64,000 bases of DNA from an uncultured delta proteobacterium (lineage in GTDB: Bacteria > Desulfobacterota > Binatia > Bin18), in assembly GCA_963733195.1 (NCBI GenBank), contig CAVTCR010000074.1, positions 106,551 through 170,550 of the forward strand, in the 5' to 3' direction. Of this stretch, positions 801-37,686 are shown one piece after another. The translations under genes were made by a program, and so were the position numbers. Under the pieces are notes generated by a model. The model was given only the letters and a program-made list of their open reading frames with translations. It searched no databases and was not told the origin of the DNA. Position 1 is the first letter of the stretch; every line of letters begins with the position of its first letter.

Positions 801-870
801 AAATGAAGAGTGAAGAATGACTGATTTTCTCATCTTAATTCTCAACTCTTAACTCTTCATTCTTAACTCT
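801..870. repeat. Short ~7-bp degenerate tandem repeats in inverted arrangement (AATGAAG/AGTGAAG ... CTTAACT/CTTCATT)
   Basis: aaatgaagagtgaagaatga...cttaattctcaactcttaactcttcattcttaactct overlapping the 3' end of the ligase gene. Confidence 0.55.
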
Positions 871-2103
871 TCTCTTTCCTGTCCCATCCGCGCCATAAGC
901 CCAGCAATAGCCCACATGACAATAACGACTTCGGCGTCGCCGAAATTGTGCTGCGTCAGACCACCAATCAGAAAGCCGATGATACTGAGAAAGGCGCCTA
1001 GAATCATGCTGCGGAACGGTTCATCCCCGGGAGGTATACATTGATAGGTTTCCCATCCCAGACGAAGCAACGACCAGAAGAAAAACAGAAAGGCTGCCAA
1101 TCCAAGTAGACCGATATCGACTCCCACTTGGAGAAAAGTGTTGTGCGCATGGCCAGTGTGATCCGCCTGCGGATGCTGTTCGTAGAAGGGATCGCGGAAT
1201 TTGCGATAATTCCCATAGCCCCACCCTAGCAATGGTCGCTCCTTGATCATCTCGATATTTGCTTGCCAGATATGACTCCGTGGGAGGTTCTGAACAAAAT
1301 CGAAGGTTGACTGGAAACGCTCCTGGACGCCTGCTCCGGCAGTGATGAGAAAAAGACCAAAGACGAGCACCCCACCCGTCACCCCGGCCAACGTTTTGCC
1401 ACCACGGATAACTCCGAGAAGAAACAACACGACAAGGTAGGCCAACCACACCCCACGAGTCAGAGAAAATAACAGGGCAAACACCATCAAGCTCCATCCT
1501 ACCGTAAGCAACAGTCGTTGGCGGAGTGCAAGCCCTGCACCTGACAACCAAACCGTCATAAACGTTAGAGGAAACAACAGATTGTGAGCAAAAGTAATCC
1601 CGGAAGGGTGAAAGCCTTTTGTACGCCATCCCTCGTCCTGCCCAAACCAGAAGGGGTCGAGTGAGGGCGGTTTCCCACGTAACTGTTTGTTGAGATCGAT
1701 TCCCGTGTAGTGCTGTACGATGCCATACGCAGCGACCACACTTGCCACTATCGCCAACAGCGAGATAAGGCGTTCAACGTCTTTGGGCTTCTGGATCAGT
1801 GTTGCCGTGACAAAGAATGCACCGACCAACCACAGCTTCCGATACCCAAGCAGTGAGTTTCCTACCGCAGGACAGAACACCGTCGAAAGCAGGAACGCAC
1901 TAAACAGTAGAAGGAGTGGACGATCAAGCGCTGTTGTCGGCCACCGCCGTTCTCGCCAACAAAGTATCGCACTCACCACAAGCACAAAGGGCAAGTGATC
2001 CTTGCTGAAAAGCAACCGGTAACGAGAACGTAGCAAAGAACAATGACAGGAATACAAAGGGCGTCAACTTGGAACTGAGAGTTATCCCAGTAACACGCGG
2101 CAC
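849..2103 (-). CDS. O-antigen ligase / O-oligosaccharyltransferase family (Wzy_C) membrane protein; probable frameshift near 1990
   Basis: Many TM segments, SLTRGVWL, RPLLGWGYGNY and HAHNTFLQ motifs. A more plausible N-terminus (GTG 2103, MPRVTGITLSSKLTPFVFLSLFFATFSLP) lies in another frame from ORF 849..2057. Confidence 0.85.
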
Positions 2104-2107
2104 TCGT

Positions 2108-3553
2108 TCACACTCCCTTGCGTGTTAACATCACCTTCACGGTTTCGGCCATTATCCGCATGTCTAACCACAAGGAGTAATTGTAAATATACGCAAGATC
2201 ATATTTGAGTTTGTATTCTGCTGTCGTGTGGTATTCACCATTCACTTGCGCGAGTCCAGTGAGTCCAGGTTTGACTTGCAAACGTTCGGCGTATCCTGGA
2301 ATCGTCCGCAAGAATCCCTCGACGAATTCTGGGCGCTCGGGTCGTGGACCGACCAAACTCATTGTGCCATTCAATACGTTAAAGAGTTGTGGAAGCTCGT
2401 CAATACGCATGGCCCGCAAGAAACGACCTACAGGCGTGATTCGTTCGTCATCCGCTCCTGCAAGTACCGGCCCAGTTGTGGCCTCTGCTCGATCGACCAT
2501 CGTACGCAGCTTGTACATCACAAACTCTTTACTGTCGCGCCCAACCCGGCGTTGACGATAGAACGTCGGCCCAGCCGATGTGAGTTTGATACAACACACG
2601 GCGACACATAACACAGGCAGGCTGAGCAGCAAAAGCACCGCCGCAATCCCAACATCCACCACTTCCTTGATAAGGAACGCGAGGTCCTCCTGTGGGTCTT
2701 TCAGGACTTCCACCAACGGCACATCGTGCAACCGTAACGTTGATACGCGACCGACTAAAATGTCATATACTGACGGTACCACTAACACCCGAGGACGGTC
2801 CTCATTCTCTCGCCATCCGCCCGAAGAGCGTACCAAACTATCGATAAACGAATCTTTCCAGGTCGGCTGTGAAAGAAGAATCACCTCCTCGATACTATGT
2901 TGACGCATGAGTTGAGGAAGATCCTCCACACTACCGAGCCATGGCACAGATGGGTGCGCGGCGACCGGTGTCGGTCCATCAACGGTCACCAATCCGACCA
3001 GTATCAGCCCCGGCGTATGGAAAACTTCTGGGAGTCCAGCTAAGAAGGTACGGAGTTCCTCTGTCGCACCAACCAACAGCACACGAAGTGGTCGCACGCG
3101 CGCGAGCCAACGCACTACCCATATGCGAAGGATCGTCACTCCCACGGTATTGAGTATCCATAACAAGACAAGCACAGAGCGGGGAAAGAACAGATCGCCC
3201 CGGAAAAAATACCACGCGGATGTCGCGAGCAACTGCACGCCTAACGCTGCTGCAACATTGGTCACTAATCGTGTTCGATGCACCAAAGCGTGAAGGTCGT
3301 AAAAACCAAAAAAGTACAGCAGAATGATTTGTGACGCTGCAAGGATGAACAACGGATGATTGACTTCGGTAAAACGAACCGATGGTAGGAGATCTGCGGT
3401 AAAAGGGAACGACACATGAATACGCAGCGCAAAAGCGAGGAGGTAGACCAAGAGGACGCAGAGAATATCTGCCAGCATCAAGACCAGCAGCGTGGTCTGG
3501 TACCGTAGTGTCGGTCGTCGTACTGTTGTCCCTGCTAGGGCAGTGTCTGCCAT
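2108..3553 (-). CDS. Polyprenyl-phosphate hexose-1-phosphate transferase (WcaJ/WbaP-type priming sugar transferase)
   Basis: N-terminal TMs plus Bac_transf motifs KLRTM, RITPVGRFLR, DELPQLFNVL, MSLVGPRPE, KPGLTGLAQV. Confidence 0.93.
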   Translation of the reverse strand: MADTALAGTTVRRPTLRYQTTLLVLMLADILCVLLVYLLAFALRIHVSFPFTADLLPSVRFTEVNHPLFILAASQIILLYFFGFYDLHALVHRTRLVTNVAAALGVQLLATSAWYFFRGDLFFPRSVLVLLWILNTVGVTILRIWVVRWLARVRPLRVLLVGATEELRTFLAGLPEVFHTPGLILVGLVTVDGPTPVAAHPSVPWLGSVEDLPQLMRQHSIEEVILLSQPTWKDSFIDSLVRSSGGWRENEDRPRVLVVPSVYDILVGRVSTLRLHDVPLVEVLKDPQEDLAFLIKEVVDVGIAAVLLLLSLPVLCVAVCCIKLTSAGPTFYRQRRVGRDSKEFVMYKLRTMVDRAEATTGPVLAGADDERITPVGRFLRAMRIDELPQLFNVLNGTMSLVGPRPERPEFVEGFLRTIPGYAERLQVKPGLTGLAQVNGEYHTTAEYKLKYDLAYIYNYSLWLDMRIMAETVKVMLTRKGV

Positions 3554-3563
3554 ACTGTGTTGT

Positions 3564-4394
3564 TTACAAAGGGGAAGGTGTATGAAGAGGCTGAACGTCT
3601 TCTAAACGACGATAGAGCCGCTGCCGAGAAAACAGGTACCGATGTTTCCAGAAGTAGTAGCTTATTCCCCACAGATGTTTCCAACTCAGCCCGGAAAATA
3701 ATGAGCGCGCCACTCGGCGCTCCTTATGAATGACCACCGCCTCCGGGTTGTAGATCACCTGCCACCCAGCTTGTCGTAGACGCAAACAGAAGTCGACATC
3801 TTCTGGTCCATAAAAAATCTTCTCATCCAGCAGCCCTACGGTCATCAGTGCTTCACGACGAATGACTTGGCACGCACCAATCACATAGTCAACTGCACGG
3901 ATGGAACTATGATCCCATTCGGCCATCTCGGTCTCGCGTCGAAGTTGCTGGACCTTCGCGACTGGCATCTGTCGTGCAAGCTTATCGAGCAGTGTCGGAT
4001 AAAAACGACAAGTGAGATGGAGTTGCCCTTCAAGGTCAGTAAGTTTCGGCGCACACAGCCCCACTCGGGGATGAGTATTCATATAGGCAATGAGACGATC
4101 GAACGCGCTGGGTTCCACAGCAGTGTCGTCATCAAGCAGGATAATATATTCCCCTTGTGCAACTCTGATGCCTTGATTCCGTCCGGGAGCAACGCCACGA
4201 TTGTCTCTGTTCACCATGAGTTGCATCCACGGAAACTCAAAACGTAAAGAAGCAGGAGTATATCCACGCGAGCCGTTATCGACGACAAGGACTTCATACG
4301 GACAGGTAGTGATAGCCTGCGGAAGAGACAGCAAACATCCACGCAAGAGGTCCGTCGAGTTCCACGTCAGAATTACAATCGAAGCTTTGATCAC
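3564..4394 (-). CDS. Glycosyltransferase family 2 (rhamnosyltransferase-like)
   Basis: SIVILTWN, VVDNGS, LLDDD, EDVDFCLR; GGAGG RBS upstream of GTG 4394. Confidence 0.88.
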   Translation of the reverse strand: MIKASIVILTWNSTDLLRGCLLSLPQAITTCPYEVLVVDNGSRGYTPASLRFEFPWMQLMVNRDNRGVAPGRNQGIRVAQGEYIILLDDDTAVEPSAFDRLIAYMNTHPRVGLCAPKLTDLEGQLHLTCRFYPTLLDKLARQMPVAKVQQLRRETEMAEWDHSSIRAVDYVIGACQVIRREALMTVGLLDEKIFYGPEDVDFCLRLRQAGWQVIYNPEAVVIHKERRVARSLFSGLSWKHLWGISYYFWKHRYLFSRQRLYRRLEDVQPLHTPSPL

Positions 4395-4399
4395 TACTG

Positions 4400-5411
4400 T
4401 TACCCCCTCCACCCTTTCGTCGATGAGAACGGACGATACAAAGAGTAAAAATCTTTGCGAGTTAACGCCAGTCGTGCCCACAGACGCGCGACACCCTTGA
4501 TCCCCAAAGACAGCAGCACCAATGGATATTCACGGATAGAGAGTGCGCGCCAGAAATGCGGCCAGTGGTACTGAGCAATCGGCCCCGCAACGAGCAGCTT
4601 CCTATGCTCTCGCAGAATCTGCAGCTTCCCACCCTCTGTTCGTACTCGTTCGGCAAAATAATCGCGCCATGTCATTGGAGGTACGAAAAAAACCTGCGCA
4701 TGCAGTTCTTTAGTCATATGCGACCGACCGACCGCCACTGTTAGCCATGCGTCTTCGAGCAAGAGATTGTCTGGAATTCCATTCGGAAGCACAGTTTTAC
4801 GCAGCAAGAGCAGTCGTCCTCCAGCATTGCCAAAATTAAAGCGGTAGGGAATCGCGCCCATCCGACCCCACAGGGTACCACCATCGGGCAGAAATGGGAC
4901 TTCCTGTGCGGCAACCAAGTTCAGCGTAGGCTCTTGCTGCATTCGTGTATAGAGCGCGTACACAGAGTTACGGTCAATTCGCACATCCGCATCAGAAAAA
5001 AGCACCATGGTCCCCTGTGCCCATCGCCAGAGGGTGTTCCAGGCTGGAGGTTTGCCCTTACGTTCGGTCAGTAAGATAGTGCAACGAGGAAAGGTTCTCG
5101 GTCCCCTCTCCTCTAGTGGGAAAGGGACAGGGCGAGGGGACCTATACTCGTCCCCTGCCCCTTCCTCATACTCTACCCACATTTCCTCACACTTCACCTG
5201 GTGCCGCTGACAAAACTCACGCATCGCCGTTAATGGGACGCATTCTTCTCCTAAGCGAATGCCATTGATGCAAATCAGTAGCTCAGTAATGAGCCCTGCG
5301 GGCAACCGCTGATGCAGGCATGCTTCGTGCACGCTTTCTAAGTGTTGTTCTGAGTCCAGGCTCACTCCCACGACAGGGAATAGCAATTGATAAGGAGTCT
5401 TGTATAAGCAT
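4400..5411 (-). CDS. Glycosyltransferase family 2; probable frameshift near 5340
   Basis: GKPPAWN, FSDAD and EDAWL motifs in ORF 4400..5386. The GT2 N-terminus MLIQDSLSIAIPCRG begins at ATG 5411 in another frame. Confidence 0.78.
5100..5142. repeat. REP-like palindromic element inside the GT2 coding sequence
   Basis: ggtcccctc...gaggggacc terminal inverted repeat with inner hairpin cccctctcctctagtgggaaaggg; encodes RSPRPVPFPLEERGP. Confidence 0.55.
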
Positions 5412-5456
5412 CGTCCTCAGCCGAAACCCCTGACATTGGCACACACTACACGAATA

Positions 5457-5552
5457 CCGCTCGTGCTGAGCGTAGCCCGAAGGGCGGAGTCGAAGCATGC
5501 GTTGTTAACCAATACCTTCATCCTTCGACTTCGCTTCGCTCAGGACGAACGG
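5457..5552. repeat. Intergenic REP/MITE-like imperfect inverted repeat
   Basis: ccgctcgtgctgagcg...gagtcgaagcatg (5457-5499) pairs with catccttcgacttcgcttcgctcaggacgaacgg (5519-5552). Confidence 0.7.
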
Positions 5553-5583
5553 AGCAACTATCCATCAGCGTAGTGTACGAATA

Positions 5584-6930
5584 TTATGAGATTTGATCGA
5601 TAAGCTTACGATAGTATCCTTCGATTGCTTCAGCATCGGCTGCAATAGACTGAACCGGAGGAAAGTGCTGCGATAGTTTCCCCACCAACGAGGGATCGGT
5701 GATGAACCGCTCCAAAGTCCGACGCAAATCCCCAACATCGCGCGGGCGGAAGAGCAAGCCATTCACACCATCCTGTATCCACTCCGGCATGCCACCGAAG
5801 GCAGCTGTCACAACAGGTTTTTTCGCTAGAAACGCCTCACGGATAACCAGTGGGGCGTTCTCGTACCAGATCGACGGAACTACCACGACATCGACCTCTC
5901 CGAGAATGCGCCCAACCTCATGATGCTCGTAGCGTCCCATCATACGGATGTGGGGGGAACTACGAAGCTGAGCAAGGAACTGTGCTCGGTCCGGATAAGG
6001 AGCGTAGTCAGCTTCGCCACCGTAAATACGCAGCTCTGCTCCTGTTAACGGGACAGCAGCCTCAACTAGGTGATGAACGCCTTTCACCGGGTCAACAACT
6101 CCAATATAGCCAAAGATCACAGGATCATGGGGCTGCCGTTTTCTGCCATTCTGGAGCATCATCGGTGGTAGCCCACACTCCGCAAAGAGAATCTTTTCCG
6201 ATGGAATACCGAACGCCAAGAACTGTTCTCGGAGGAATTGCGACGGCGCCAGAAAGAGTGATACAGCTTTACAGATCTCACGGATATGCGCCATACGTTG
6301 AGCAATCTGCAAGCATGCCTCAGCCGAAGGTCGGCGATGAGTAACGTACTTTGCATATACCCAACGGAGCCGATCTCTCAACCAACGATGTTTTCCCGGG
6401 GCGAGCCTCAGTTTTTGATATATTGGGATCAGTTGCCTAGACAGCAGATATCCAAAACAGCGCGCGCATCCCTCATCCGTTTGACCTGAACACACCGAAA
6501 GATCAGGCTTGAGAAATCGACCACGCTGGCAGATGAGCCAGTAATCGTGCAGGGTCATCACAACTGGGATTCTTCGTCGTGCAGTCTCCTCAACGCAAGT
6601 GGTCGAAAGATACATCAAGTGATGGAAGTGTACGACCTCTGGGGTGACAGCATCCAGGAAAGCGCTAAATTGCTCAGCAATGTCTGGATTGAGATAACTC
6701 CGGGTAAAGGTATTGAGGCGGGTGAAGGTGTTATTGACTCTCGTCACTGGCAAACCGTCGTAGCTAACCGTATCTACTGCACCCTCAGGTCGGTGGGGGT
6801 CATTCACGCGGGTGAAGACCTGGACCTCGTGCCTACGACGACGCAGTGCAGTAGCCAAGTGCGCTGCATACATCTCCGTCCCACCTAAACTTTCTGGTGG
6901 CATGCCTTGGACAACATGGAGGATCTGCAC
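5584..6930 (-). CDS. Glycosyltransferase family 4
   Basis: GGTE N-terminus, TLHDYW, KGVHHL, PSIWYENAPLVIREA. Confidence 0.9.
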   Translation of the reverse strand: MQILHVVQGMPPESLGGTEMYAAHLATALRRRRHEVQVFTRVNDPHRPEGAVDTVSYDGLPVTRVNNTFTRLNTFTRSYLNPDIAEQFSAFLDAVTPEVVHFHHLMYLSTTCVEETARRRIPVVMTLHDYWLICQRGRFLKPDLSVCSGQTDEGCARCFGYLLSRQLIPIYQKLRLAPGKHRWLRDRLRWVYAKYVTHRRPSAEACLQIAQRMAHIREICKAVSLFLAPSQFLREQFLAFGIPSEKILFAECGLPPMMLQNGRKRQPHDPVIFGYIGVVDPVKGVHHLVEAAVPLTGAELRIYGGEADYAPYPDRAQFLAQLRSSPHIRMMGRYEHHEVGRILGEVDVVVVPSIWYENAPLVIREAFLAKKPVVTAAFGGMPEWIQDGVNGLLFRPRDVGDLRRTLERFITDPSLVGKLSQHFPPVQSIAADAEAIEGYYRKLIDQIS

Positions 6931-7022
6931 GAGTGATATCCTTTTCCTTCTCTTCTATACCCAAACGGCACGGACAGCAGAAGAAGTGCCTTCCGGAAAC
7001 ATTGTTGTCCGTGGTTATCACC

Positions 7023-7931
7023 TCAGAGTGCCGTTCCCTTTGTTGGAGAAGGGTGGGTGCGAGAGGGTCCGTACAACTGTTCCCCGTCGCGGTGCCCTTT
7101 CTTATACCAGTAGATTCGGTTCAGAGCGAACAGGGGGTAACGACACAGCGCCACAAACTCGCGCTTTTGCCATAACTCACGTATGGTTTTATGGCTGCGT
7201 CCAATCATCGCGGCAAGTGAGGACTGCGATGGCGAGGATGCGGCTTGTGGATCAGGTACCTTGTGTCGTAAGGCGAGATATTGCCCCATCAGTCCCTCCT
7301 CATACCAGCGTCTCCGCCAGTAACGAAGCAATGGCGGGTGGCTATGGAACACGCTCGCATCGTGGACGTACCGAATAATGTACGGTGCCGGAAGCGTATA
7401 GGCCCACAGAAAATCTTCTCCTGAAGATGTTTCTTCATCGAACGGGACATCCTGCCACACACTTTTCCGCACCGCACTATTGGCATTGGAGAACGACGCC
7501 CGGACGGTGTTGTCAGCTTGGAGCGTATACGACTGCTCCAATTCTCGCTCTTCGAGCGGATTTACTCCTGGTATGGGCTTCTGTCGGCCATAGGTCGCCA
7601 CTACCAGTGCGTTATTCGTGAATGGGGTTACCAATTCTCGCAACCAGGAACGAGAACACGGCACACAGTGGGCCGAGAGAAACACAACATATTCACCATG
7701 AGCTAATGAGGCTCCGTGATTGAGCGCAAAACCGAATGTGAACTCGCCCGTAGGGATTTCCTCCAGTCGTACCGGAAAGCCACGCACAATCTCCACTGTC
7801 CGGTCTTTCGACCCTGAGTCTAGTACGATCACCTCATACTGTTCAGTAAACTCCTGCTCCAAAACCCTTTGTAGCACTGAGCCGATGAAGTGCTCTTCAT
7901 TTTTGCTGCGAATGACAATCGATACCCTCAT
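7023..7931 (-). CDS. Glycosyltransferase family 2 (rhamnosyltransferase-like)
   Basis: MRVSIVIRSKNE, DSGSKD, SNANSAVRK, GEDFLWA, FHSH. Confidence 0.88.
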   Translation of the reverse strand: MRVSIVIRSKNEEHFIGSVLQRVLEQEFTEQYEVIVLDSGSKDRTVEIVRGFPVRLEEIPTGEFTFGFALNHGASLAHGEYVVFLSAHCVPCSRSWLRELVTPFTNNALVVATYGRQKPIPGVNPLEERELEQSYTLQADNTVRASFSNANSAVRKSVWQDVPFDEETSSGEDFLWAYTLPAPYIIRYVHDASVFHSHPPLLRYWRRRWYEEGLMGQYLALRHKVPDPQAASSPSQSSLAAMIGRSHKTIRELWQKREFVALCRYPLFALNRIYWYKKGHRDGEQLYGPSRTHPSPTKGTAL

Positions 7932-7968
7932 GGCCAACATCCGCAGAACAGGAAACATGCGACTCGCT

Positions 7969-8700
7969 TCACAGCGGTTTCTTAAACAAAGTCACGCAAT
8001 CCTGATTTGGGGTATCCCAATCAATAATTTGGGATTTGACAACTTCAAGTCCTTCTTTGGCGCAGTAGTGGTGAAAAAGGTTTTGTGACATAAAGTTTCT
8101 CCACCCAGGATTGTCATGAATATTCCCTGTGGGATTCTTGTCGTAGTTCGAGTAGTGGCAAAACCCGTATCCACCAGGCTTCAGAACACGGTAGAAGTCG
8201 TGCAAATACGAACGAACAACATCACTGTCAAAATGGCCCATCGCATCGAAACAATAGACCAGAGAGACTTCACCACTCGGAATACCGCTCAACGTAAAGC
8301 CGTCATTCTGGATGTAAGTGATTTTCTTCTCTGTGGCAAAGCGTTGCTGGCAAAAGCGAATGTTATCTGCATTGATGTCAACCAGGTAGAGTTTCTTAGC
8401 TAACTCTAAAAGCTTTCTTGTGTTGCGACCATGACCGGCCGCCAAATCAACCACACAGGAAAAGTCACACCCCTGAATAAACGGCCAGACCGTTTGGCTC
8501 CACGCCTGCTCGATCCACTGCTCCGCAGACTCGTAATAGTCTAAAGCAACACGAGAGTGTCCCTTCCAGTCTTCTCCGACTTCCCCTGCCCATTTCGTCA
8601 GACGTTCTCGATCTGGAAGAAAACTCGTGAGAGAATGCTCAACAGTAGAGGTTTTGAGCTTTTGCTTGCTTCTACTCCACAAACCACGTAAACGTCTCAT
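7969..8700 (-). CDS. Class I SAM-dependent methyltransferase
   Basis: VVDLAAGHGRN motif I; RVLKPGG. Confidence 0.88.
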   Translation of the reverse strand: MRRLRGLWSRSKQKLKTSTVEHSLTSFLPDRERLTKWAGEVGEDWKGHSRVALDYYESAEQWIEQAWSQTVWPFIQGCDFSCVVDLAAGHGRNTRKLLELAKKLYLVDINADNIRFCQQRFATEKKITYIQNDGFTLSGIPSGEVSLVYCFDAMGHFDSDVVRSYLHDFYRVLKPGGYGFCHYSNYDKNPTGNIHDNPGWRNFMSQNLFHHYCAKEGLEVVKSQIIDWDTPNQDCVTLFKKPL

Positions 8701-9416: not shown

Positions 9417-9456
9417 CTCACTTTCCTTTTGCTGGTAGGACGATTCTCCTCATGGC

Positions 9457-11925: not shown

Positions 11926-11927
11926 GC

Positions 11928-14598: not shown

Positions 14599-14605
14599 AG
14601 AGTGC

Positions 14606-16903: not shown

Positions 16904-16999
16904 GCAGTCGGCATGAACTTCTCAGCGGCAGTGTCACGTGGACGAGTATTTGACTTTGCGGTAGTGACGTGCCGAGCTATGTTTTATACGAAAGTCGCT

Positions 17000-20120: not shown

Positions 20121-20182
20121 GAAGGCATCAGCGGCTATGGGCGACTGCTACACGCTTCATCACCTACACTTTGCAATCTGTC

Positions 20183-21331: not shown

Positions 21332-21347
21332 CAGGGTGCTCTCTCTT

Positions 21348-22490: not shown

Positions 22491-22542
22491 AGCGGTTGTT
22501 GGCCTTCATGACGGCCATACGGGGTATTCGACAAACCAATAG

Positions 22543-24822: not shown

Positions 24823-24851
24823 AAAAAAAAGGGCGGGGATGTTCCCCGCCC
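24823..24851 (-). terminator. Rho-independent terminator after the secreted-protein gene
   Basis: Minus strand gggcgggga-aca-tccccgccc followed by T8. Confidence 0.88.
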
Positions 24852-24888
24852 ACGTGTTCACAACATAACGACCCGCAGCAATACGCAC

Positions 24889-26831: not shown

Positions 26832-26856
26832 CGTACGCTCACACCACCCCCAGATA

Positions 26857-28989: not shown

Positions 28990-30715
28990 TTAGCCACTCT
29001 TTGCTTCGAGCATTCGCCGTTTATCTGCCCAGCGTGCTTCTGCTTCTTTGTCGCCACGCTCTTTTGCCACTGCTTCCAATCCTGCATACACTCCCGGAGA
29101 GTTTGGCATCAACGCCGCAGCCTGTTGGAAAAATTGCTCAGCAGTATCGATATTTTTGAGCGCCAGGTTGACCCAACTGAGGAGATAGATGACACGAGGA
29201 TTGCGCGGCGCAATTTGTTGCGCCTGAGACGCATAGTGAAAGGCTTGGCCGTAGTGGCCACTCTCAAAAGCGAGTTCTCCCAACCCAACAACGGCACCAG
29301 AGTGTTGAGGAGTAATGGCAAGTGTCTCCGCGAATTCGCGTGCAGCATCGGAGAATCGTTTTTGCCTTTTGTATACACCAGCGAGGTTATAGTGTCCCCG
29401 TGCGCTTTGCGGTGCGGTCCGAGTCACGACCGACCAAAAAGTTTCTTCGTTTACCCAATCACGATTGCGTACAATCGTCCTTAAGACTGCTCCTGTCAGC
29501 AGTGCCAGCACGAGTCCATACGCCGTTGCAGCTCGTATGCGTTCCCATCCTTGTCTCTTCGCTAGCCCTACACCACACAGCGCATCAAGCAGCACTCCGA
29601 CGATTAAACAAAAACCAAACAACGGAACATAGAGATAATGTTCAGCAACGATCTCTTTGATAGGAATAATATGCGAGAGCGGAAGAATGCTCACCAGCAT
29701 CCACAACCCGCCATACCCACAGAGTGGAAACCTGCGCGCGAGCAGCGTCAAGCCGCCAGCAATACTCACAAGGATACCGAGAGCAAGCAACACGTCGGGT
29801 TGAGCGAATGAGGATGAGGCCGGAAAAGCATTGTACGAGTAATCGGCAAGGAGCGTACGTGGAAACACCATCAGACTCAGATCGTGGACCCAGATCCGCG
29901 CGACTGTGGCAAAATTCCCTTCGAGGCTCCCTCCGTACCACACCGAATTTCGAATGGTTGCCAAAAGGATCGCGCCGGAAAAATGCCACAACACTGCGCC
30001 CCCTAAAAGCAAGACGAAGAAATAGACTGCCCAACGCCGGCGGAGGGAGGCAACAACGCCTTCGTGCTGAACATCGTAGAGCCAGCACAGAAGGGGAAGG
30101 ACGATCGCGCTTTCTTTACTAAGAATCCCGAGCCCATACGCAACACACGACAACAACAGCCAGCCATAACGCCACCCGCTCGCACCCTCTGCGGCCCGAA
30201 AACGTAAGTAGGCCCACAGGCCGCAAAAGACACAGAGTCCGCCGAGGATATCGCGCCGACCGGAAATGTACGTAACCGCATCGGTCAGTACAGGATGCAG
30301 CGCCCACAAGGCAGCAACAAACACGGCAGGACGCCACCGCCATTCGTTCTCAGGAATCACTGTCGTCGGCTGCGATTGCGTGCCCGATCTAGAGTTGGTT
30401 AGTCGGAGGGTAATAAAAAAGACGAAACAGGCAGAGAGCCAGTGATAGAAAAGATTGCTCAGGTGCAGCACCCACGGCTGCATCCCACCCACGCGCACAT
30501 CGACGATGTAGGACAGATTACGAAACGGCCGATAGCCGAGAGATGTCGGTGACATGAGAAAGTGCGACAATGGACTGCGAACTCTGCACCACCGGATTCT
30601 CTACGACTAACATGTAGTCATCAAAAACAAACTCATTGCTCAGGGCATTGTAATAAGCAGCACCAATCGCCGCGGCAAGCACGAGACACACCAACAACTT
30701 CTTCATCACCTCCAC
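28990..30715 (-). CDS. TMTC-like GT-C membrane glycosyltransferase with C-terminal TPRs; frameshift near 30560
   Basis: FVFDD (ORF 30518..30715) + GYRP, LHPVLTDAVTYISGR, LSKESA, AEHYLYVP, RNRDW, TPR helices. Confidence 0.82.
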
Positions 30716-30737: not shown

Positions 30738-33089
30738 CTAGCGCGCCTCTGACTTATCCGGCAGTGAAGGCTGGTTCTGGCCCCCAGGAGTCGGAATCGC
30801 CGATTCATCAACCTGCAGACGCACCTTCGGTTTCTGTATCCGACCGAGAAGCCCCTTGAGTCCCTGGATACGTTGCTCGAATTCCTCTGTGACCGATCGC
30901 GCCTCTTGGCGGTTACGAATCACATGTGGGGTAATCAGGATGATTAACTCCGTCCGATCGACCCGGTCGCTTTCCGTACGAAAGATCCGGCCAAGCACGG
31001 GTACCTCCATCAAGAATGGGACACCCCTGCGAATCCGCCGGATTTGATCGTCAATAATGCCACCAATGAGTACCGACTCTCCATTCTGCACGACTACAGT
31101 CGTCTCCGTTTCGCGCGAGGTGAAGCTCGGCGAGTTGGTATTGCCAAATATGGCATCTCCTACCGCACTGACTTCTTGGCGAATTTCCATATTCACCAGG
31201 CCAGCCGAGTTGATCTGCGGCATAATCGTCAAAATCTTCCCGGTATCGCGATACTGAATGCTGTTTGAGACGAATGGGTCCGACGAGTTAAGATTCGTTG
31301 ACGTCGAGGTTAAGATTGGTATTTCCTCACCAATCAGAATATGGGCTTCTCGATTATCTGCTGCAATTACATGTGGCGTGGCAAGACTTCTCACGTTCGA
31401 GCGGGCCGCTAAGGCATTAATGAGTACCAAAAAAGTGTCACGGTCAGTAATGAACGAAAACAGTCCGCCCCCGCCTATTTTCGCCGCTCGTTTTGCAGAA
31501 TCGAGAAGCGCATTGTCAGAGATTAACCTCGACGTCGCCCCAGGGGTGGTGGTTGTACCATCTCCATCATCATGTCCCTGTCCCAAGGAGCTTGATCAAT
31601 ACCGCCGTTGGCAAGTGCCCATTCTACCCCAAACTCAAGGTTGTCTCCAAGACCTATCTCGGCAATGATCGTCTCGATCAGTACCTGTCGGGGCACGACA
31701 TCAATCTGACGCAGCACTTCCTTGATCATGCTGTAGTCTCGTGCCGTCGCAAGCACAACGAGTGAGTTTGTACTCTCGTCGGCGACGATACGGACTTCTT
31801 CCTTAAAGATCGGCTTTTCGCCTTCTTTGGGTGCAATGAGAATCGTTTGGGACCCACCACCTATCGCCCCACCACCGGGACCTCCGCCACGGCTACCACT
31901 GCGGCCCCCCTGCCACCCCCTAATCCACTACTGCTTCCGCCACCTAATCCACTACTGCTAGTCCGCCACTACTCTCCCACGGCTGCTGCGCCCGCCGAAT
32001 CCCCCTGACCCTGACCGCGTGCTCCCAGTCGACCCGCTCAGCCCTGTCTCTCCCAATCCAACCACCAATACCTCCCGCTGTACCTTGCTGGGCGCCTCTC
32101 CGGCCACTACTTCCCCCACCTCCCCCTTCAGCGCCGTAGAGCTGTCCAAGTACTTCGGCCAGGTCCACCGCTTTCGTATTCTCAACCGCATACACATGCA
32201 CGGTTCGCCCACCACCTTTTTCCGGCGGTACGTCAAGCACTTTGACCCACTTCCGTACTTCTGCGAGGATCTCTTTGTTAAATGCGATAACGACTATGGA
32301 ATTCAACCGGGTCATTGGAATAACAAAAACGCCGCGTTCATTCGCTGCTTTTGGTGTTACCCCATACGGTTCAAGCACGCCTTTAAGTTCGTCTCCGAGA
32401 TCTTCAACATTTGCGTTCTCGATGCGAAACACCTCTGGATACAAATTACGAAACATGTCGATATCAAACATCCGCGCGAGCTCTTTGAGACGCCCCACAT
32501 TTGATGCGATGTCAGAGATAATCACTAAGTTCGCCCGCGGATAGGCAATCACATCTCCGCCTGGAGAAACAAAAGGTTGCAGGACTTTTGCCATTTCTTC
32601 AGCTGCCAAGTGATCGACTTTCATCAGCTCTATGACAAATCGGTCCTCAGCATTCGCAGCGCGTTGCTCAGTTGCCGTATCAGTCACTTCGGCTCGTGTT
32701 TTCCCCTCACCGACCGGGGCGATTTGATAGAGATTCCCCACTTTGACAGCGGCAATACCATTCGCACGTAAAATTTGATGGAAGATCGGAAAGAGATCCC
32801 GACCTGCGATACGTCCACTGGTGCGAATAGTGACTTGCCCTTGCACTCGAGGATCAATGGTGTAGCTAATCCCCAGCGCAGTGGCGAGGCTGTGGATGAC
32901 CTCGCGGATATCCGCTCCTTCAAAGTTCAGCACAACCGCTTCGTCTCCACTTGTCGCTTCACGTCCAGCCGCGGGAGGCGCTGGTGGAGGCGCTGGAGCA
33001 GCTTCCCCTTCTTGGGCCATCACTCGAGTTCCCTGTATAAGCCAAGCGATGGCAATAGCAATCAGCGGTATCAACCTCTTACCCCTCAT
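30738..33089 (-). CDS. gspD: Type II secretion secretin; frameshifts in the Gly/Ser-rich linker region
   Basis: LNFEGADIREVI N0, N-domains, QVLIETIIAEI, GVPFLMEVPVLGRIF, RTELIILITPHVI spread over ORFs 31944..33089, 31523..31756, 30738..31586. Confidence 0.9.
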
Positions 33090-33128: not shown

Positions 33129-33947
33129 TTACTCGCCATCTTCTTCTTCTTCTTCTTCCTCATTGTCGTCGCCTTCTGGGTTGGAATTCTCTCCCTGAGC
33201 CGCTGCTTCCTCGCGTGCAGCTCTGCGACGAATCCGACGTAAGCGCTGTTGCATTCTTTGAATATTGTCGCGCAATGCTTGCGCCTCTTCCGGTGCAGCT
33301 TGGGCAACGGCGGCTTGCTGGTTTGGATCAGCATCAGGCGCCTGAAGGACTCGCCCAGCTGGTGGCCCAGGACGGCCCACCCTTGCGTTGGGCTGCACAA
33401 CATTAGGGATGAGTCTTGGGGCTTGTTGCGAGGTTGCACTATCGAGAATCCGCAGTTGAAGAGGAACCACTTCTCCTCCTGCCCCAAGTGACAACTTCAC
33501 CTCAGCCGCTGTCACCTGCAAGAGTTGATATTGCCCGATCGAGTCCCCTTGTTTCACACGGATAACTTTGTTTCCTTGCGAGGTATCCGAAAGGAACGCC
33601 TCAGCGCGGGAACGGGTAAGGACGATCCCCACGAGTTTCAAGTGTGCAGGCGGATCAATTTTCTTGGGACCTTCGTCTGTTGTGACAGGGGCTGGGGTCT
33701 CCCCCCGAGCAGGGGAGAACAAGTCATTCTGCGCAATCGTCGCCACATAGGCGCTCATGGCATCAGGTGTAAGAGTTGGGAGGGGCCCTCCGGCCTCCGA
33801 GAGAGCGGGTGGAGCATTCGTCGTCTCTATCGGGGGCGTGGGTAACGAACGCCGCCATGTGGCAACGATCTTTCCACAGAGCATGAGAATGACTACTACT
33901 AACACTACGTGCAGAAGAGTACGAATACGCATGAGAATGCCACCCAA
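33129..33947 (-). CDS. T2SS inner-membrane accessory protein (GspC/GspN/PilP-like)
   Basis: N-terminal TM, Pro-rich linker, NDLFSPAR, LKLVGIV..AFL..VKQGDSI; located between gspM and gspD. Confidence 0.65.
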   Translation of the reverse strand: MGGILMRIRTLLHVVLVVVILMLCGKIVATWRRSLPTPPIETTNAPPALSEAGGPLPTLTPDAMSAYVATIAQNDLFSPARGETPAPVTTDEGPKKIDPPAHLKLVGIVLTRSRAEAFLSDTSQGNKVIRVKQGDSIGQYQLLQVTAAEVKLSLGAGGEVVPLQLRILDSATSQQAPRLIPNVVQPNARVGRPGPPAGRVLQAPDADPNQQAAVAQAAPEEAQALRDNIQRMQQRLRRIRRRAAREEAAAQGENSNPEGDDNEEEEEEEDGE

Positions 33948-34517
33948 TTACGACGGGGGCCCTCCTTGCATGATGCCACTGACCTCGAGAGTAACCGTCA
34001 ACGGGTTCGGCTTCGGCGCCCCGGCTTGCTGCATTCCAGCTATACGAATGTTATACGTTCCTCGGACTTCCAATGAAGAGACCATCAGTCGCCAGTCGCC
34101 ATATTCAACAGCAGACACAAAGCGCCCTAACTCTGGCAAGCCTCCACGCAGAGTCATTTGCACGGTGGTCTTACGAAATTCACCTGCCGGTTCATCACGG
34201 AGTGACACCGTTGTCAGCACGTCAAGCCCACTACTGCGGGCAAGATTTTGTAATCGGTCCTGAAGTTGCGACGCCGCTAACGCAGGGGTTCCCCCAGGAA
34301 TGAGATGTTGTCGAACATCCTGCACACGTTGGCGGAGTTGCGTCACTTGTTGTTCAATCTGTGGACCGCGATCGCGCTGACGCTCCATCTTCGCAACAAA
34401 GCTTGCTTGTTGCGCGATCTCATTCTCTAATTCTTCTGTATAGGCGCGATAGGGTTTGACAATTCCGTACACGAAAATGACCAATAGCAAGGCAGCCCCG
34501 GCAATCCCAAGCAGCAA
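33948..34517 (-). CDS. gspM: T2SS protein M (GspM/PilO-like)
   Basis: TM + coiled coil + LAASQLQDRLQ ferredoxin-like domain; synteny. Confidence 0.75.
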   Translation of the reverse strand: MLLGIAGAALLLVIFVYGIVKPYRAYTEELENEIAQQASFVAKMERQRDRGPQIEQQVTQLRQRVQDVRQHLIPGGTPALAASQLQDRLQNLARSSGLDVLTTVSLRDEPAGEFRKTTVQMTLRGGLPELGRFVSAVEYGDWRLMVSSLEVRGTYNIRIAGMQQAGAPKPNPLTVTLEVSGIMQGGPPS

Positions 34518-34553
34518 CTCGTTCCCGTGGTGCGCGCCCCTGCCACAGTTGTT

Positions 34554-35969
34554 TTATTCTTTGCATAGTTCTGTCTTTGCCCCCAGAGTGAAGGTCTCCC
34601 CTTGTGGAGTTGTCGTGAAAGGCGCCTTTGCCGTCACGTCCCGGAAGCAGGGAGAGTTTTCGAGTTGGGCAATGAGGTCAGCGGCAGACTGTGACCCAAG
34701 CCCACTCATTTCGACATCCCCTTCTTTGTAACGAAGATGGTTCAGATAATATTCCTTCGGGAAAAGTTCTGAGAGGGTTTTCACCACTGGAATCACTTTT
34801 TGTCGTGCCGTTCCATCGAGCAGTTGTAGTTGTTTTTGTAACTTAGAGATTTCTTCTTCCTGAGTTTGAACTTGCTGGACCGGAGCTTCGAGCGCGGCAC
34901 GCTGACGGGCGAGGTCTCTAAGGACACGGTGTTGCTGAAAAACAGAAACCACAGTCCATAGAATGCCGAGCATGCCGATTGTTCCCACCAACACCAGTGT
35001 CAACGGAGAGAGTCGTTTTTCCCGCCGGGCTCGCCGCTCCTCAGGGAGCAAATTAATTCCTCCATTTCCTTCACCAATCGCTTGCAACGCTGCCCCTACA
35101 GCCGGAAGTGCAGGAGGCGGAAGCACGTCACCATCGCTTAACCCGAACTGTGTCGTCGCCAGTGCTTGCAAGTCGTGGTCAACACTCACAGTGAAGGGTA
35201 AAAAAGGGGCAGCAAAACACGAGAAGAGAGGGGTCTCTGCCGGAGAAGCCCCAGGAAAACTTCTGGTGATTACTTGTGCTACCAACTCGTCAAGCTCTTC
35301 TTTGCCAATCTCTGTAGCAATCGGAATCACTTGACTGGCCAGTAATCGCTTTCCCTTGATGCTATTCATCTCCATCGAGTCTGCTTCAGGAACAAGAAGG
35401 AGACGTGGCCCCGCAGTTGGGTCTCCGCAAAACGCGAGGGTGCTCGTCAAGGCCGAACAACTGAGCGTCACCATTTGTAGGCGTAACTGCGCTTGCAGCA
35501 AAATCCCGAGATACTCTTCAACTTCTTGACGAGAAAGACCAAAGACCGTCACTTCGATGCGCTTCTCCTCGTGGCCAACATCCGAGGTTAGATAGTCGTA
35601 ATACAAATCTTCTTTTGGGAAGGGGAACAGTTGATCAACCTGATAGCCAATGACTTCGTGGATCACATCGCGAGCACTTTCTGGAACGACGATACGACTG
35701 ACATACGCCGTACGGCGCGGCAATGAGAGTACCGCTTGATCAGGAGTGGTGTCGATGTCTTGTAAAAAACCATTGAGCGCGTGATCGAACTCATCAAGTC
35801 GCTCGCGGCCCGCCTCCGGCAGCGGCACAGTACGGGCATGACGTAACGAAACGTTCATAAATCGTTTCATCACGTGTACGAAGCTGACATTATGCGTCCC
35901 TACCGCGATACCGACCCCGTGGAGAAAGTCGGCTTTCATCAGCCGCTGGAGAGTTGTATTTAGCTCCAT
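34554..35969 (-). CDS. gspL: T2SS protein L (PilM/PilN-like fusion)
   Basis: Actin-like cytoplasmic part (FPFPKEDLYYDY), INLLP motif, TM, PilN domain (LENSPCF). Confidence 0.8.
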   Translation of the reverse strand: MELNTTLQRLMKADFLHGVGIAVGTHNVSFVHVMKRFMNVSLRHARTVPLPEAGRERLDEFDHALNGFLQDIDTTPDQAVLSLPRRTAYVSRIVVPESARDVIHEVIGYQVDQLFPFPKEDLYYDYLTSDVGHEEKRIEVTVFGLSRQEVEEYLGILLQAQLRLQMVTLSCSALTSTLAFCGDPTAGPRLLLVPEADSMEMNSIKGKRLLASQVIPIATEIGKEELDELVAQVITRSFPGASPAETPLFSCFAAPFLPFTVSVDHDLQALATTQFGLSDGDVLPPPALPAVGAALQAIGEGNGGINLLPEERRARREKRLSPLTLVLVGTIGMLGILWTVVSVFQQHRVLRDLARQRAALEAPVQQVQTQEEEISKLQKQLQLLDGTARQKVIPVVKTLSELFPKEYYLNHLRYKEGDVEMSGLGSQSAADLIAQLENSPCFRDVTAKAPFTTTPQGETFTLGAKTELCKE

Positions 35970-36005
35970 GCTACTTCCATATTGCGGTTGCGGTTTAGGT
36001 GCGCA

Positions 36006-36422
36006 TTAGAACACATCGGCATTCAGTCCATCCCCTCCCGAGACCCCATCCGCTCCATATGAAAAGAGATCGAAGACCCCTTTCTCGCCTGGGCTGCGGT
36101 ATACATACGCATTTTGCCACGGATCACGCGGGACTTCTCTATCCGCTCGCAGATAGGGGCCATCCCAACGATCCAGACCCGATGGTCGCTGGAGCAACGC
36201 CTGTAGTCCTTCTTGAGAATTCGGATAGCGACCGACATCAAGACGGAAGGCATCCAGGGCGGTCCGCAGCATCTCCATTTGCGTCTTCGCGATTTTTGGG
36301 TTCTGCTTCTCTCCTACCCCCAGCAAGTTTGGTGCAACTAATGCCGCCAACAATCCCAGGATGAATACCACCACAAGAAGCTCGACGAGTGTAAACCCGG
36401 CCTGCATCACTCCTTTGTTCAT
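36006..36422 (-). CDS. gspG: T2SS major pseudopilin
   Basis: GFTLVELLVV prepilin site, ALDAFRLDVGRYP, WDGPYL, DPWQNAY, SYGADG. Confidence 0.95.
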   Translation of the reverse strand: MNKGVMQAGFTLVELLVVVFILGLLAALVAPNLLGVGEKQNPKIAKTQMEMLRTALDAFRLDVGRYPNSQEGLQALLQRPSGLDRWDGPYLRADREVPRDPWQNAYVYRSPGEKGVFDLFSYGADGVSGGDGLNADVF

Positions 36423-36447
36423 AACCTTCCTCGCAGAATAGCGATTG

Positions 36448-37686
36448 CTAGAAACCCGCTTGGTTAATACTAAAAATCCCTTGTAACAAGCCAATAACGA
36501 CAAAGCCGACAACGAGTCCCATCCCAAGGATAAGTGCCGGCTCTACCAAGGACACTAACTGTTTTAGTTGCGTATTCGTCTCCTTCTCGTAATACTCCGC
36601 CGTCCGCATCAACATTTCATCAAGCCGTCCAGTTTCTTCACCGACACTCACCATTTGTAACGCCAGTGTAGGAAACGCGCCACTGCGCCCCAATGGCCCA
36701 CTAATCCCTTGCCCTTCTCGTACGCCGCTTCGCACCTCTTTCAATGCGCTGCTGATCACTTGATTACTGACGACCGCTTCGACAACCTCAAGGGCCTGGA
36801 GTAAAGGGACTCCACTCTTCAGAAGAGTGCCTAAAGTCCGCGCAAAGCGTGCGACTTCTCGCTTGCGAATTAAGTCCCCTAAAAGCAACACCCGGAGTCG
36901 CCAACGATCCCAAGCAAACCGCCCGTGCGGGGTCGCAATATACCGATGTAAGGCCCATCCTATACTGACCACAATGAGAACTAAAACCCACCAATAGGCC
37001 TGAAACCATTCGCCTAAGTTTAATAGAAAGCGCGTCAGCACTGGGAGTGCAGGCCCCATGTCTTTGAAAATTCCTGCAAACTTCGGCAGAACGTACGTAA
37101 ACATAAAGAATACGGACGAGCCACCGACAAAAACCAACATTGCGGGATACGCCAGTGCTGCTTTGATTTGCTCTTGCACCTCCTGAGAACGTTCAAGATA
37201 TTCAGCAAGTCGCTGGAGCACGGTGTCCAGAAATCCGCCAATTTCTCCAGCCTTGACCATATTGACGTACAAAGGGGGAAAAATCTTCGGATATTCTGCT
37301 AACGATTCTGACAACGACTTCCCTTGCTGCACTGTGCGCAAGATTTGGGCAGTCGCTTGCTTGAGCTCTTCTTTCTCAGTGAGGCCAGTCAATACCGACA
37401 ATGCGCGGTCGAGCGGTAATCCTGACGAGATGAGCGTTGCTAATTCACGAGTAAAGATTTGTAGATCCTTTTGTCGGACTCTTCCTCGCCAGGGCAATTG
37501 AGGAAGCGAGAGTTGGCGCTGACCAGTCAGGGGCTTCGGCTGTGTCTCTCCAGGGGGTCGGATACGAAGAGGAAGGTAGCCCTGATCGCGCAGGCGCATG
37601 ACCACTGTCCGTTCCTCACCTGCTTCCATAACGCCCTCAATCAGTTTTCCTTGTGGAGTCGTTGCTTGGTAGTGGAATTGTGCCAT
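36448..37686 (-). CDS. gspF: T2SS inner-membrane platform protein F
   Basis: FTRELATLISSGLPL, GEIGG, GEETGRLD, LVEP. Confidence 0.94.
   Translation of the reverse strand: MAQFHYQATTPQGKLIEGVMEAGEERTVVMRLRDQGYLPLRIRPPGETQPKPLTGQRQLSLPQLPWRGRVRQKDLQIFTRELATLISSGLPLDRALSVLTGLTEKEELKQATAQILRTVQQGKSLSESLAEYPKIFPPLYVNMVKAGEIGGFLDTVLQRLAEYLERSQEVQEQIKAALAYPAMLVFVGGSSVFFMFTYVLPKFAGIFKDMGPALPVLTRFLLNLGEWFQAYWWVLVLIVVSIGWALHRYIATPHGRFAWDRWRLRVLLLGDLIRKREVARFARTLGTLLKSGVPLLQALEVVEAVVSNQVISSALKEVRSGVREGQGISGPLGRSGAFPTLALQMVSVGEETGRLDEMLMRTAEYYEKETNTQLKQLVSLVEPALILGMGLVVGFVVIGLLQGIFSINQAGF

Follow-up and report, generated by a model that had tools for sequence, protein, structure and literature searches.

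Why are the genes of a type II secretion system (T2SS), a secreted protein and an exported polysaccharide interleaved in one locus of an uncultured delta proteobacterium? The locus lies in a window of 64,000 nt, the whole stretch of DNA that was analysed, at the end of contig C74 in a genome of 6.9 Mb and 87 contigs (GCA_963733195.1, labelled G000 here). The organism belongs to Binatia, an uncultured lineage that is widespread in soil and sediment. Along the minus strand, from 37740 to 849, the order is gspF, gspG, a gspL-like gene, gspM, a possible gspC, gspD, a GT-C family glycosyltransferase (GT) gene with tetratricopeptide repeats (TPR), wzm, an FG-GAP lipoprotein gene, the gene of a 157-aa lipoprotein, the stretch of the secreted protein, wzt, a block of glycan genes, a priming transferase gene of the WbaP type, a Wzy_C gene and two ABC exporters. 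The secreted protein and its relatives are called SecFam below. The arrangement is read here as a surface protein that would be exported by the T2SS and held by a lipoprotein, and possibly by the glycan, and that is embedded in an O-antigen-type locus, a new variant of an arrangement known from Aeromonas. This reading is given about an even chance of being right. The features, identified from the listing of open reading frames (ORFs) and from Pfam and NCBIfam scans of the window, are these:

849..2057, minus strand: Wzy_C family ligase, WaaL candidate (PF04932, 81.5 bits; cut-off 31.7)
2108..3553, minus strand: polyprenyl-phosphate hexose-1-phosphate (priming) transferase, WbaP-type (Bac_transf, 217 bits; TIGR03025, 394 bits; cut-off 295.55)
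3564..23550, mixed strands: glycan assembly block (Pfam, frameshift-aware alignment, synteny)
11928-14598: GT4-GT2 gene, frameshift at about 12825
23572..24771, minus strand: wzt, ABC-2 ATPase (ABC_tran, 76 bits); its C-terminal domain is weakly Wzt_C-like (23.8 bits, cut-off 30.4)
24831..24851, minus strand: intrinsic terminator directly 3' of the secreted gene (9-bp stem with 8 G-C pairs, then T8)
24889..26201, minus strand: SecFam, gene of a secreted two-beta-sandwich protein, broken in the assembly (no open frame)
26358..26831, minus strand: small lipoprotein, 157 aa, predicted docking partner of SecFam (lipobox Cys; complex model)
26857..28116, minus strand: FG-GAP beta-propeller lipoprotein (FG-GAP_3, 107.6 bits; syntenic in genera g1, g5, g9 and g10)
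28144..28944, minus strand: wzm, ABC-2 permease (ABC2_membrane, 58.5 bits)
28990..30706, minus strand: GT-C glycosyltransferase with a C-terminal TPR domain, in a TMTC/PMT-like layout (5' frameshift near 30585)
30738..33089, minus strand: gspD secretin (Secretin, PF00263, 155.6 bits; Secretin_N, PF03958, 93.1 bits; N0, PF21305, 61.5 bits)
33129..33947, minus strand: GspC-like ORF, a weak assignment (PilP at E 0.12 only; its place between gspM and gspD is conserved)
33948..37740, minus strand: gspM, gspL-like (PilM+PilN type), gspG and gspF (Pfam, NCBIfam)

The coupling of these genes can be followed through the relatives. Among 56 genomes, one per species of the order, a SecFam match (E <= 1e-3) was found in 12, and nine of these matches are strong, in genera g1, g5, g9 and g10. 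In each of the nine genomes with a strong match, a copy sits between the gene of the small lipoprotein and wzt. This slot is on one contig in G002, G006, G018, G020, G022 and G070, in all six of which SecFam is a single open frame, and it is split at contig ends in G001 and G010; the ninth is the window. The T2SS genes share the SecFam contig in G002, G006, G020 and G010. The preliminary description of this DNA, made from the letters alone, had listed a T2SS (F, G, L, M, C/N-like and D), a TMTC-like GT-C gene, wzm, two lipoproteins, wzt, about 10 GTs, a priming transferase and Wzy_C, a gene content that the Pfam and NCBIfam scans bear out, and had named co-occurrence across relatives as its check. 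That co-occurrence is present: the order T2SS, GT-C, wzm, lipoproteins, SecFam, wzt and GTs was found in all eight carriers. Contigs that are long enough have it preceded by a luciferase-like gene, and in G006 the priming transferase, Wzy_C and the ABC exporters follow on from it.

A diverged form of the same coupling is found in the other genera examined. In G053 and the closed genome G015 (g8), the T2SS genes are succeeded by a lipoprotein gene (26-29% identity) and by one whose secreted product has 330 or 560 aa; wzt, wzm, GTs and Wzy_C come next. These secreted proteins have similar ends and no recognisable membership in SecFam; pairwise BLAST, at E 1.9e-8, aligns the G053 protein with residues 2-106 of SecFam. 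The closed genome G017 (g3) has the T2SS genes, about 12 kb of other genes, then a lipoprotein and a 693-aa secreted protein adjoining wzt. The SecFam profile gave a probability of 12% (E 0.0024) against the G017 protein and 0.4% against that of G015, too weak for homology. All three genomes keep a lipoprotein and another secreted protein at this place. In every genome examined, then, gspD and wzt enclose a slot for a small lipoprotein and for a secreted protein that diverges fast from genus to genus. Gene order supports a coupling of T2SS, SecFam and glycan genes beyond a chance neighbourhood.

A SecFam paralog also adjoins a second cluster of Wzt (Wzt_C 85 bits), GT2 and methyltransferase genes in G010, G002 and this genome. 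The paralog concerned here (G000:C25:43426-44651) is frameshifted, and the associated genes are at C25:55895-59230 and C26:107688-114095. It follows genes for a pyridoxal phosphate-dependent decarboxylase and an aldo-keto reductase, and nearby are a double-GT2 gene of giant size and a Wzm/Wzt pair whose Wzt_C domain is clear, a layout that recurs on G010:C23 and G002:C9.

Nearly invariant in the window and six relatives from three genera are some 35 nt (window 26325-26360) that include the stop codon of the gene for the small lipoprotein and the adjoining 3' bases; the remainder of the 160-200-nt spacer between this gene and SecFam shows no conservation. Between the GT-C and lipoprotein genes of G053 there is about 1.5 kb with only short ORFs in all frames (L041 16561-18042, on G053:C4). 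This is the place of wzm and the FG-GAP gene in the window, and the stretch may be broken or non-coding. In G015, two membrane-anchored coiled-coil repeat proteins (L058 6991-7821 and 10656-11510, on G015:C1), one of which has ADIAEVKTELKADI-type units, flank the pair of lipoprotein and secreted protein and sit where the window has the GT-C and FG-GAP genes.

SecFam is an orphan Binatia family. Sequence and profile searches gave no match to it in Pfam, NCBIfam or the PDB sequences. A large protein search found 142 relatives; the 120 of these that were listed all bear the source name 'hypothetical protein' and the label Candidatus Binatia bacterium or Deltaproteobacteria bacterium, and many are from contigs of 1-2 kb. 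For the homologue P0016 the Atlas stores unnamed clusters only, from Binatota and Acidobacteriota. Distant relatives of the N-terminal domain occur in Thermoanaerobaculia as fusions with DUF11 and CARDB surface repeats. SecFam has a conserved D-T-L triplet; chance alone would give roughly one triplet of this kind, by an approximate calculation, and it was left unused.

Most genomes with SecFam have several copies. There are four in this genome, and G010 has four full-length copies together with terminal fragments at contig ends. Eight of the 22 SecFam loci in the reference genome collection start or stop inside the gene at the end of a contig. The window was also compared with contigs from four public sequencing runs, all of them from related strains (95-99% alike) and none from the source strain. 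In X1, the run with the best coverage, a contig of 268 nt joins the last 49 nt of the gene (24889-24937) through 171 letters to codons ~25-41 (26078-26128), which indicates two tandem SecFam copies in that population. The multiple copies per genome, the contig breaks within the gene and the joined copies of X1 lead to the conclusion that SecFam is a repeated, strain-variable gene with conserved ends.

The strong terminator noted in the preliminary description stands. A hairpin with a T-run (-17 to -23 kcal/mol) follows the gene in seven of the eight in-locus copies examined, and the Shine-Dalgarno sequence of SecFam is GGAGG. Such a conserved strong terminator and strong Shine-Dalgarno sequence would be consistent with a highly expressed structural gene. 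The true start of the following wzt is likely to be the ATG at 24771, judging from its translation and the position of the terminator. Over the secreted and the two lipoprotein genes (24001-28000) the plus-strand GC skew is -0.19 and -0.24, against about -0.03 to -0.14 elsewhere in the locus.

In the AlphaFold model, SecFam has two beta-sandwich domains (predicted local distance difference test, pLDDT, 73.9; predicted template modelling score, pTM, 0.78). The N-domain resembles TM1070 (1nc7, ASRT/TM1070-like) with a Z score of 8.1 over 111 of 116 residues and a root-mean-square deviation of 3.0. Foldseek matches it to the same entry at E 2.8e-5 with a template modelling score (TM) of 0.65-0.69 on the target, a level that is common for models without clear relatives; apart from 1nc7, all Foldseek matches of SecFam in the PDB are below TM 0.3. 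The C-domain is closest to the carbohydrate-binding module (CBM) of AlgX (4knc, Z 5.8), with CBM32, CBM35 and galectins at Z of about 4. As these fold matches are modest, the suggestion that SecFam is lectin-like is a lead rather than a finding. No Ser/Thr/Pro-rich low-complexity stretch is present in SecFam.

The small lipoprotein encoded next to SecFam is assigned to no family by Pfam or NCBIfam. The genome has one copy of it, and the lipobox Cys is invariant in eight of eight orthologs. Complex models of the mature parts of the G002 pair, made with custom alignments of 12 and 8 rows, gave interface scores (ipSAE) of 0.64, 0.69 and 0.72 (median 0.69), where the best of three controls reached 0.00. 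Of 157 solved complexes 116 attain this mark, as do 2 of 215 mismatched pairs, a calibration that is rough for custom alignments. The partners have pLDDT of at least 79, and the runs share at least 75% of contacts. The modelled interface consists of SecFam segments 50-63, 106-123 and 183-196, and its invariant SecFam residues are D57, V106, S110, D113, Y185, V187, L189, G192, S193, G196 and R414 (alignment numbering). SecFam is thus predicted by the complex model to dock on the adjacent lipoprotein. Because the interface includes residues that are invariant across in-locus and out-of-locus paralogs, all SecFam paralogs could share this one lipoprotein anchor.

The secretion genes are of the T2SS type. 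GspF, GspG and GspM reach the NCBIfam equivalog cut-offs (TIGR02120, 428.4 bits with a cut-off of 424; TIGR01710, 152.2 with 88.85; NF040576, 86.8 with 60), and the secretin GspD has N0, Secretin_N and Secretin domains, its gene being broken in frame here and a single frame in relatives. Neither gspE nor the minor pseudopilin genes are in the locus: none of the 12 T2SSE matches and neither of the two T2SSK matches in the genome is on contig C74. In the relatives examined, the luciferase-like gene runs directly into gspF, likewise without gspE and gspH-K. A second T2SS, with E, F, G, K and D, is located on contig C81.

The glycan block (3564-23550) has 10 GT genes with 13 GT domains (GT2, GT4 and three GT4-GT2 fusions with coiled-coil tails), together with modifying enzymes that comprise three methyltransferases, a PIG-L deacetylase on the plus strand and a GNAT protein. 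Within it, at 20183-22490, the methyltransferase ORF overlaps the upstream GT2 ORF by 167 nt in a different frame. The same overlap is 127-160 nt in G006 and G002, so that either the overlap is conserved or the genomes share a start further downstream.

The preliminary description had proposed a candidate dedicated system of secretion and glycosylation, with the glycan attached to the secreted protein rather than (only) to lipid A. The ligase is below all NCBIfam cut-offs (IctB 73.1 bits; PEP_O_lig_1 40.7; RfaL, NF012031, 37.8 with a cut-off of 277; TfpM 23.1 with a cut-off of 600), and a PDB sequence search with it gave nothing useful. The RfaL and TfpM models are narrow, so that these misses do not separate WaaL from a protein oligosaccharyltransferase. 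Its distribution is more telling. A Wzy_C ortholog (47-80% identity) is found once per genome in 55 of the 56 genomes of the order, and in all 31 of those that are of high quality, compared with 12 of 56 for SecFam, and it is kept whichever cargo protein fills the slot. The genome has LpxC and three GT9 (heptosyltransferase) matches, and its only other Wzy_C genes belong to a Wzz/GNVR exopolysaccharide locus. The ligase is thus the only WaaL candidate, a role that genome content would give it. For its presence in 55 genomes, against 12 for SecFam, the Wzy_C distribution appears to match an O-antigen ligase better than a dedicated protein glycosyltransferase. A general protein O-oligosaccharyltransferase would have the same distribution, which means that the glycoprotein model is lowered, no more. 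Glycan transfer onto SecFam by the Wzy_C ligase is not supported. The further claim that the embedded protein is itself the glycoprotein fits poorly with the models, which are lectin- or CBM-like, predict binding to the lipoprotein and so point to anchoring.

The GT-C gene is a less constant member of the locus. In a model of the G022 ortholog (pLDDT 78.9) the fold is close to STT3B (Z 18.5, 336 residues), a further oligosaccharyltransferase (18.4), Pmt1-Pmt2 (18.2, 361 residues), Pmt4 (17.8) and ArnT (16.3, 330 residues). These values come from a wider structure comparison, Foldseek and the PDB profile search having been swamped by TPR proteins. The protein has C-terminal TPR repeats and an invariant acidic DD pair in the first loop (D29 and D30, alignment numbering). 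The PMT_2 match is 24.2 bits, below the cut-off of 26.1, and TMTC_DUF1736 was matched in 2 of 13 orthologs (best E 1.4e-4). The gene was found (E <= 1e-20) in 22 of the 56 genomes, with no match in 22 of 28 g8 genomes and in all eight g3 genomes, and closed G015 (g8) keeps the module without it. From this distribution, and from the module of G015, GT-C is an accessory part of the module.

The secreted protein gene had been proposed for 24889-26201. The coding stretch and its terminator stand, but no open frame runs through it in the assembly: the longest in any frame over 24889-26357 is 105 aa. The stretch is coding DNA, as it matches piecewise, in three frames, an intact 439-aa paralog with a signal peptide (G000:C71:28746-30062). 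Frameshift-aware alignment with the syntenic G002 ortholog (261 identities in 416 aligned residues) shows 14 shifts and three in-frame stops; with the C71 paralog there are 11 shifts and three stops. The Shine-Dalgarno site, start codon and terminator are all in place despite the broken frame. A large non-coding RNA in this ORF-free 1.4 kb was considered and dropped on account of the protein match in three frames. An alternative genetic code was also rejected, the stops to be read through being a mixture of TGA, TAG and TAA and the neighbouring genes being open under table 11. Errors in homopolymers alone do not explain the breaks either; most of the shift sites lie outside long runs, the first being in a run of A5.

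Other genes are affected as well. gspD is split in two ORFs by about six shifts in two low-complexity linkers, one Gly-rich (~31910-32060) and one Thr/Gly-rich (~31572-31594), with at least two net frame changes. A shift near 30585 detaches the first helix and the FVFDDY motif from the GT-C protein, and a GSU2086-family gene near 40000 is probably shifted too. Three of the four SecFam copies in the genome are shifted (those of the window, C25 and C37), and within 40 kb about 5 of 36 genes are, single-copy genes included. Contigs of related strains in X1 and X6 have extra letters at 24958 and 24982, and X1 also at 25041 and 25073, the latter two falling on one in-frame stop (25040/25041) and one frame switch of the SecFam copy in the window. 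Over the 233 nt compared there are 10 substitutions and five indel events; the comparison with the four runs has 28 further indels beyond those listed. This share of indels is far above that known for natural decay. The number of genes hit, the X1 letters at the stop and the switch, and the excess of indels make it most likely that the frameshifts in the window are consensus errors of the assembly, not decay; those in gspD, the GT-C gene and one GT4-GT2 gene are probably long-read consensus errors.

Real decay would mean that SecFam and gspD are pseudogenes and that this organism has lost its surface protein. The most damaged genes are indeed SecFam (11-14 shifts) and gspD (about six), which would be expected to be lost jointly, and the shift sites are mostly outside long homopolymers. 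However, the GT-C and GT4-GT2 genes and the paralogs on C25 and C37 are shifted too, as probably is the single-copy GSU2086 gene outside the module, and an indel to substitution ratio of about 1:2 against strains that are 95-99% alike is well beyond what decay leaves. There is no X1 contig over 25140-26078, the other three runs cover the middle of the gene in small pieces and none of the runs is of the source strain; decay therefore keeps some weight, as the less probable account but one to be reckoned with.

Over the whole window, Rfam at gathering thresholds gave a 5S rRNA and two tRNAs only. At 40788-40992 the 5S rRNA gene (92.9 bits) and, 16 nt downstream of it, tRNA-Gly(CCC) are on the plus strand. 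The 5S gene has no 23S rRNA gene upstream, is preceded by a minus-strand SIS-domain gene and looks stand-alone. From 41000 to 64000 the G+C content rises to as much as 0.61 (48-52 kb) and there are many short overlapping ORFs on both strands.

An arrangement of this kind is known in a diderm, the fish pathogen Aeromonas. According to the passages on these clusters, A. salmonicida A450 and A. hydrophila AH-1 have a dedicated T2SS (spsE-M, spsD) and the S-layer (surface layer) gene vapA inside an ABC-2 O-antigen cluster, between wzm and wzt or beside them, with vapA the last gene before wzt in A450 or before wzm-wzt in AH-1 (PMC4483657, PMC4413209). The architecture, which the preliminary description had offered as a diderm assembly line not known to be described for this lineage, is therefore not new for diderms. 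As these passages describe it, the A-layer is tethered to the cell by lipopolysaccharide (LPS), and they make no mention of its glycosylation (PMC4413209); the interleaving has a proven common purpose (PMC4483657). The gene order of the Binatia locus has the same architecture, with T2SS and surface-protein genes interleaved with wzm/wzt, which is likeness of architecture, not homology. Both have a second T2SS set ending in the secretin, with a general T2SS elsewhere in the genome (PMC4483657, PMC4413209). Going by the same passages, both also have the gene of a secreted surface protein of ~45-50 kDa as the last before the ABC transporter gene or genes, and a wzm/wzt-dependent glycan with large multidomain GTs; a lectin-like SecFam fold, as modelled, would allow tethering to LPS here too. 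As indirect hints of a paracrystalline, LPS-tethered layer there are the expression signals of SecFam, this fold and the DUF11 and CARDB fusions of its distant relatives. The phylum is different, however, and the structural protein is of an unrelated orphan family with several paralogs per genome. Unlike Aeromonas sps, the Binatia T2SS set lacks E and H-K, and Binatia has as extras the small lipoprotein predicted to bind SecFam, the FG-GAP lipoprotein and the GT-C/TPR enzyme. The Binatia module is conserved across the whole family and is not a strain-specific insertion.

The other systems that the locus recalls share less of it. The slg clusters of Geobacillus stearothermophilus and Paenibacillus alvei (WsaP, Wzm/Wzt, WsaB) are found in monoderms with S-layers anchored by S-layer homology (SLH) domains and without a T2SS, and their Wzy_C enzyme is dedicated to the S-layer protein. 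They have in common with the present locus a WbaP-type primer, a Wzm/Wzt exporter, methyltransferases, which could cap the chain, and a Wzy_C transferase, but the distribution of the Binatia Wzy_C is decoupled from that of the secreted family (55 of 56 genomes as against 12). ABC-transporter-dependent O-antigens of the E. coli O8/O9a type have capped chains, a carbohydrate-binding domain on Wzt and the primer WecA. Here Wzm/Wzt, the C-terminal extension of Wzt, the methyltransferases, coiled-coil multidomain GTs and a terminal Wzy_C ligase are similar; the primer is instead WbaP-type, Wzt_C is below its cut-off (23.8 against 30.4 bits), and T2SS, lipoprotein and secreted genes interrupt the cluster. 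The GT-C protein resembles TMTC and PMT enzymes in its GT-C membrane domain followed by TPR repeats, its invariant DD pair and its similarity to Pmt1-Pmt2 and Pmt4 (Z 18.2 and 17.8), yet ArnT (16.3) and the oligosaccharyltransferases (18.5 and 18.4) match about equally and PMT_2 is below its cut-off.

These parts can be joined in a sequence of steps. The polysaccharide pathway, with its WbaP-type primer, its many GTs and its enzymes for methyl or acyl modification, is of the Wzm/Wzt-exported kind; its product would most likely be ligated to lipid A-core by the Wzy_C of the locus to give an O-antigen. Interleaved with it are a second, partial T2SS and the slot that holds the small lipoprotein and the fast-evolving secreted protein, the latter probably strongly expressed. 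The Sec system would take the two-beta-sandwich protein to the periplasm; the T2SS of the locus would carry it through the outer membrane, with the ATPase and minor pseudopilins probably supplied by the complete T2SS on C81; the conserved face of the N-domain would dock on the small lipoprotein; and the CBM-like C-domain may bind the glycan of the locus. The whole would resemble the Aeromonas S-layer locus of VapA, Sps-T2SS and O-antigen.

Several observations weigh against a surface protein exported and anchored in this way. The locus T2SS has no gspE and no gspH-K, in this genome or in the relatives examined. The complex score is a model confidence from small custom alignments, and the fold matches are modest even for generic beta-sandwiches, with the PDB sequence searches empty and no detectable relation to solved S-layer proteins. 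Nor does SecFam have a detectable relation to VapA, of which no sequence was compared. The genome has two further Wzm/Wzt pairs, so the glycan of the locus need not be O-antigen. The flanking SIS, GSU2086 and luciferase-like oxidoreductase genes and the two ABC exporters, which have no obvious relation to the module, are syntenic too, so that some of the conservation may reflect nothing more than common descent in one family. The decay of SecFam in this strain, weighed above as a lesser but real possibility, would count in the same direction.

An explanation by descent alone takes up the point about synteny. A second T2SS and an O-antigen cluster would be neighbours without a shared task, and SecFam and the lipoprotein would be ordinary cargo or AlgX-like helpers of glycan export. 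It would account for unrelated flanking genes being equally syntenic across genera, for the ~12 kb of other genes between gspD and the lipoprotein gene in closed G017, for AlgX CBM as the best match of the C-domain (Z 5.8) and for the two of four SecFam copies (C71 and C37) that do not adjoin glycan genes in the stretch seen. This is nevertheless thought unlikely, as the pair of lipoprotein and SecFam splits wzm and wzt, or is flanked by wzm/wzt, in every genus examined and a second, independent association of SecFam with Wzt exists; in Aeromonas, moreover, interleaving is described as serving a proven common purpose (PMC4483657). The model of the preliminary description, in which Wzy_C as an O-oligosaccharyltransferase puts the Wzm/Wzt glycan on the secreted protein and the T2SS exports an S-layer glycoprotein, is regarded as more doubtful still. 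The known diderm precedent is an LPS-tethered S-layer on whose glycosylation the relevant passages are silent (PMC4413209). An ortholog of the ligase occurs in 55 of 56 genomes regardless of SecFam (12 of 56), keeps 47-80% identity while the cargo changes beyond recognition between genera, and is the only WaaL candidate of a genome that makes lipid A; SecFam itself, without a Ser/Thr/Pro-rich stretch, looks in the models like a glycan binder. The model draws on an enzyme set that matches the S-layer logic of Geobacillus and Paenibacillus (WbaP-type primer, Wzm/Wzt, methyltransferases and Wzy_C), on the embedding of the secreted gene between wzm and wzt in nine genomes, on the paralog adjoining a second Wzt cluster and on a Wzy_C that falls short of every equivalog cut-off for WaaL and faintly matches TfpM (23.1 bits).

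The least probable of the proposals is a lipoprotein-anchored coat of Binatia with its own dedicated T2SS. Its multi-copy, fast-diverging lectin-like family would have out-of-locus and tandem copies as exchangeable variants that keep the docking face, and would receive O-glycans in the periplasm from the TMTC-like GT-C/TPR enzyme. If true, this would give bacteria an equivalent, coupled to secretion, of the TMTC protein O-mannosylation of eukaryotes.

We know of no S-layer that has been seen in Binatia, and the literature on Binatia secretion systems or surface layers, judged by titles, gave no relevant title. For annotators the SecFam gene is a warning, as it breaks short-read assemblies and gathers consensus errors in long-read ones. 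The locus yields a concrete candidate for the major surface protein of this lineage, together with a testable protein pair consisting of an orphan secreted family and an orphan lipoprotein. As a surface protein held by this lipoprotein, and perhaps by the glycan, it would be a second case, of independent evolutionary origin, of the plan known from Aeromonas, with a T2SS and a surface protein built into an O-antigen cluster.

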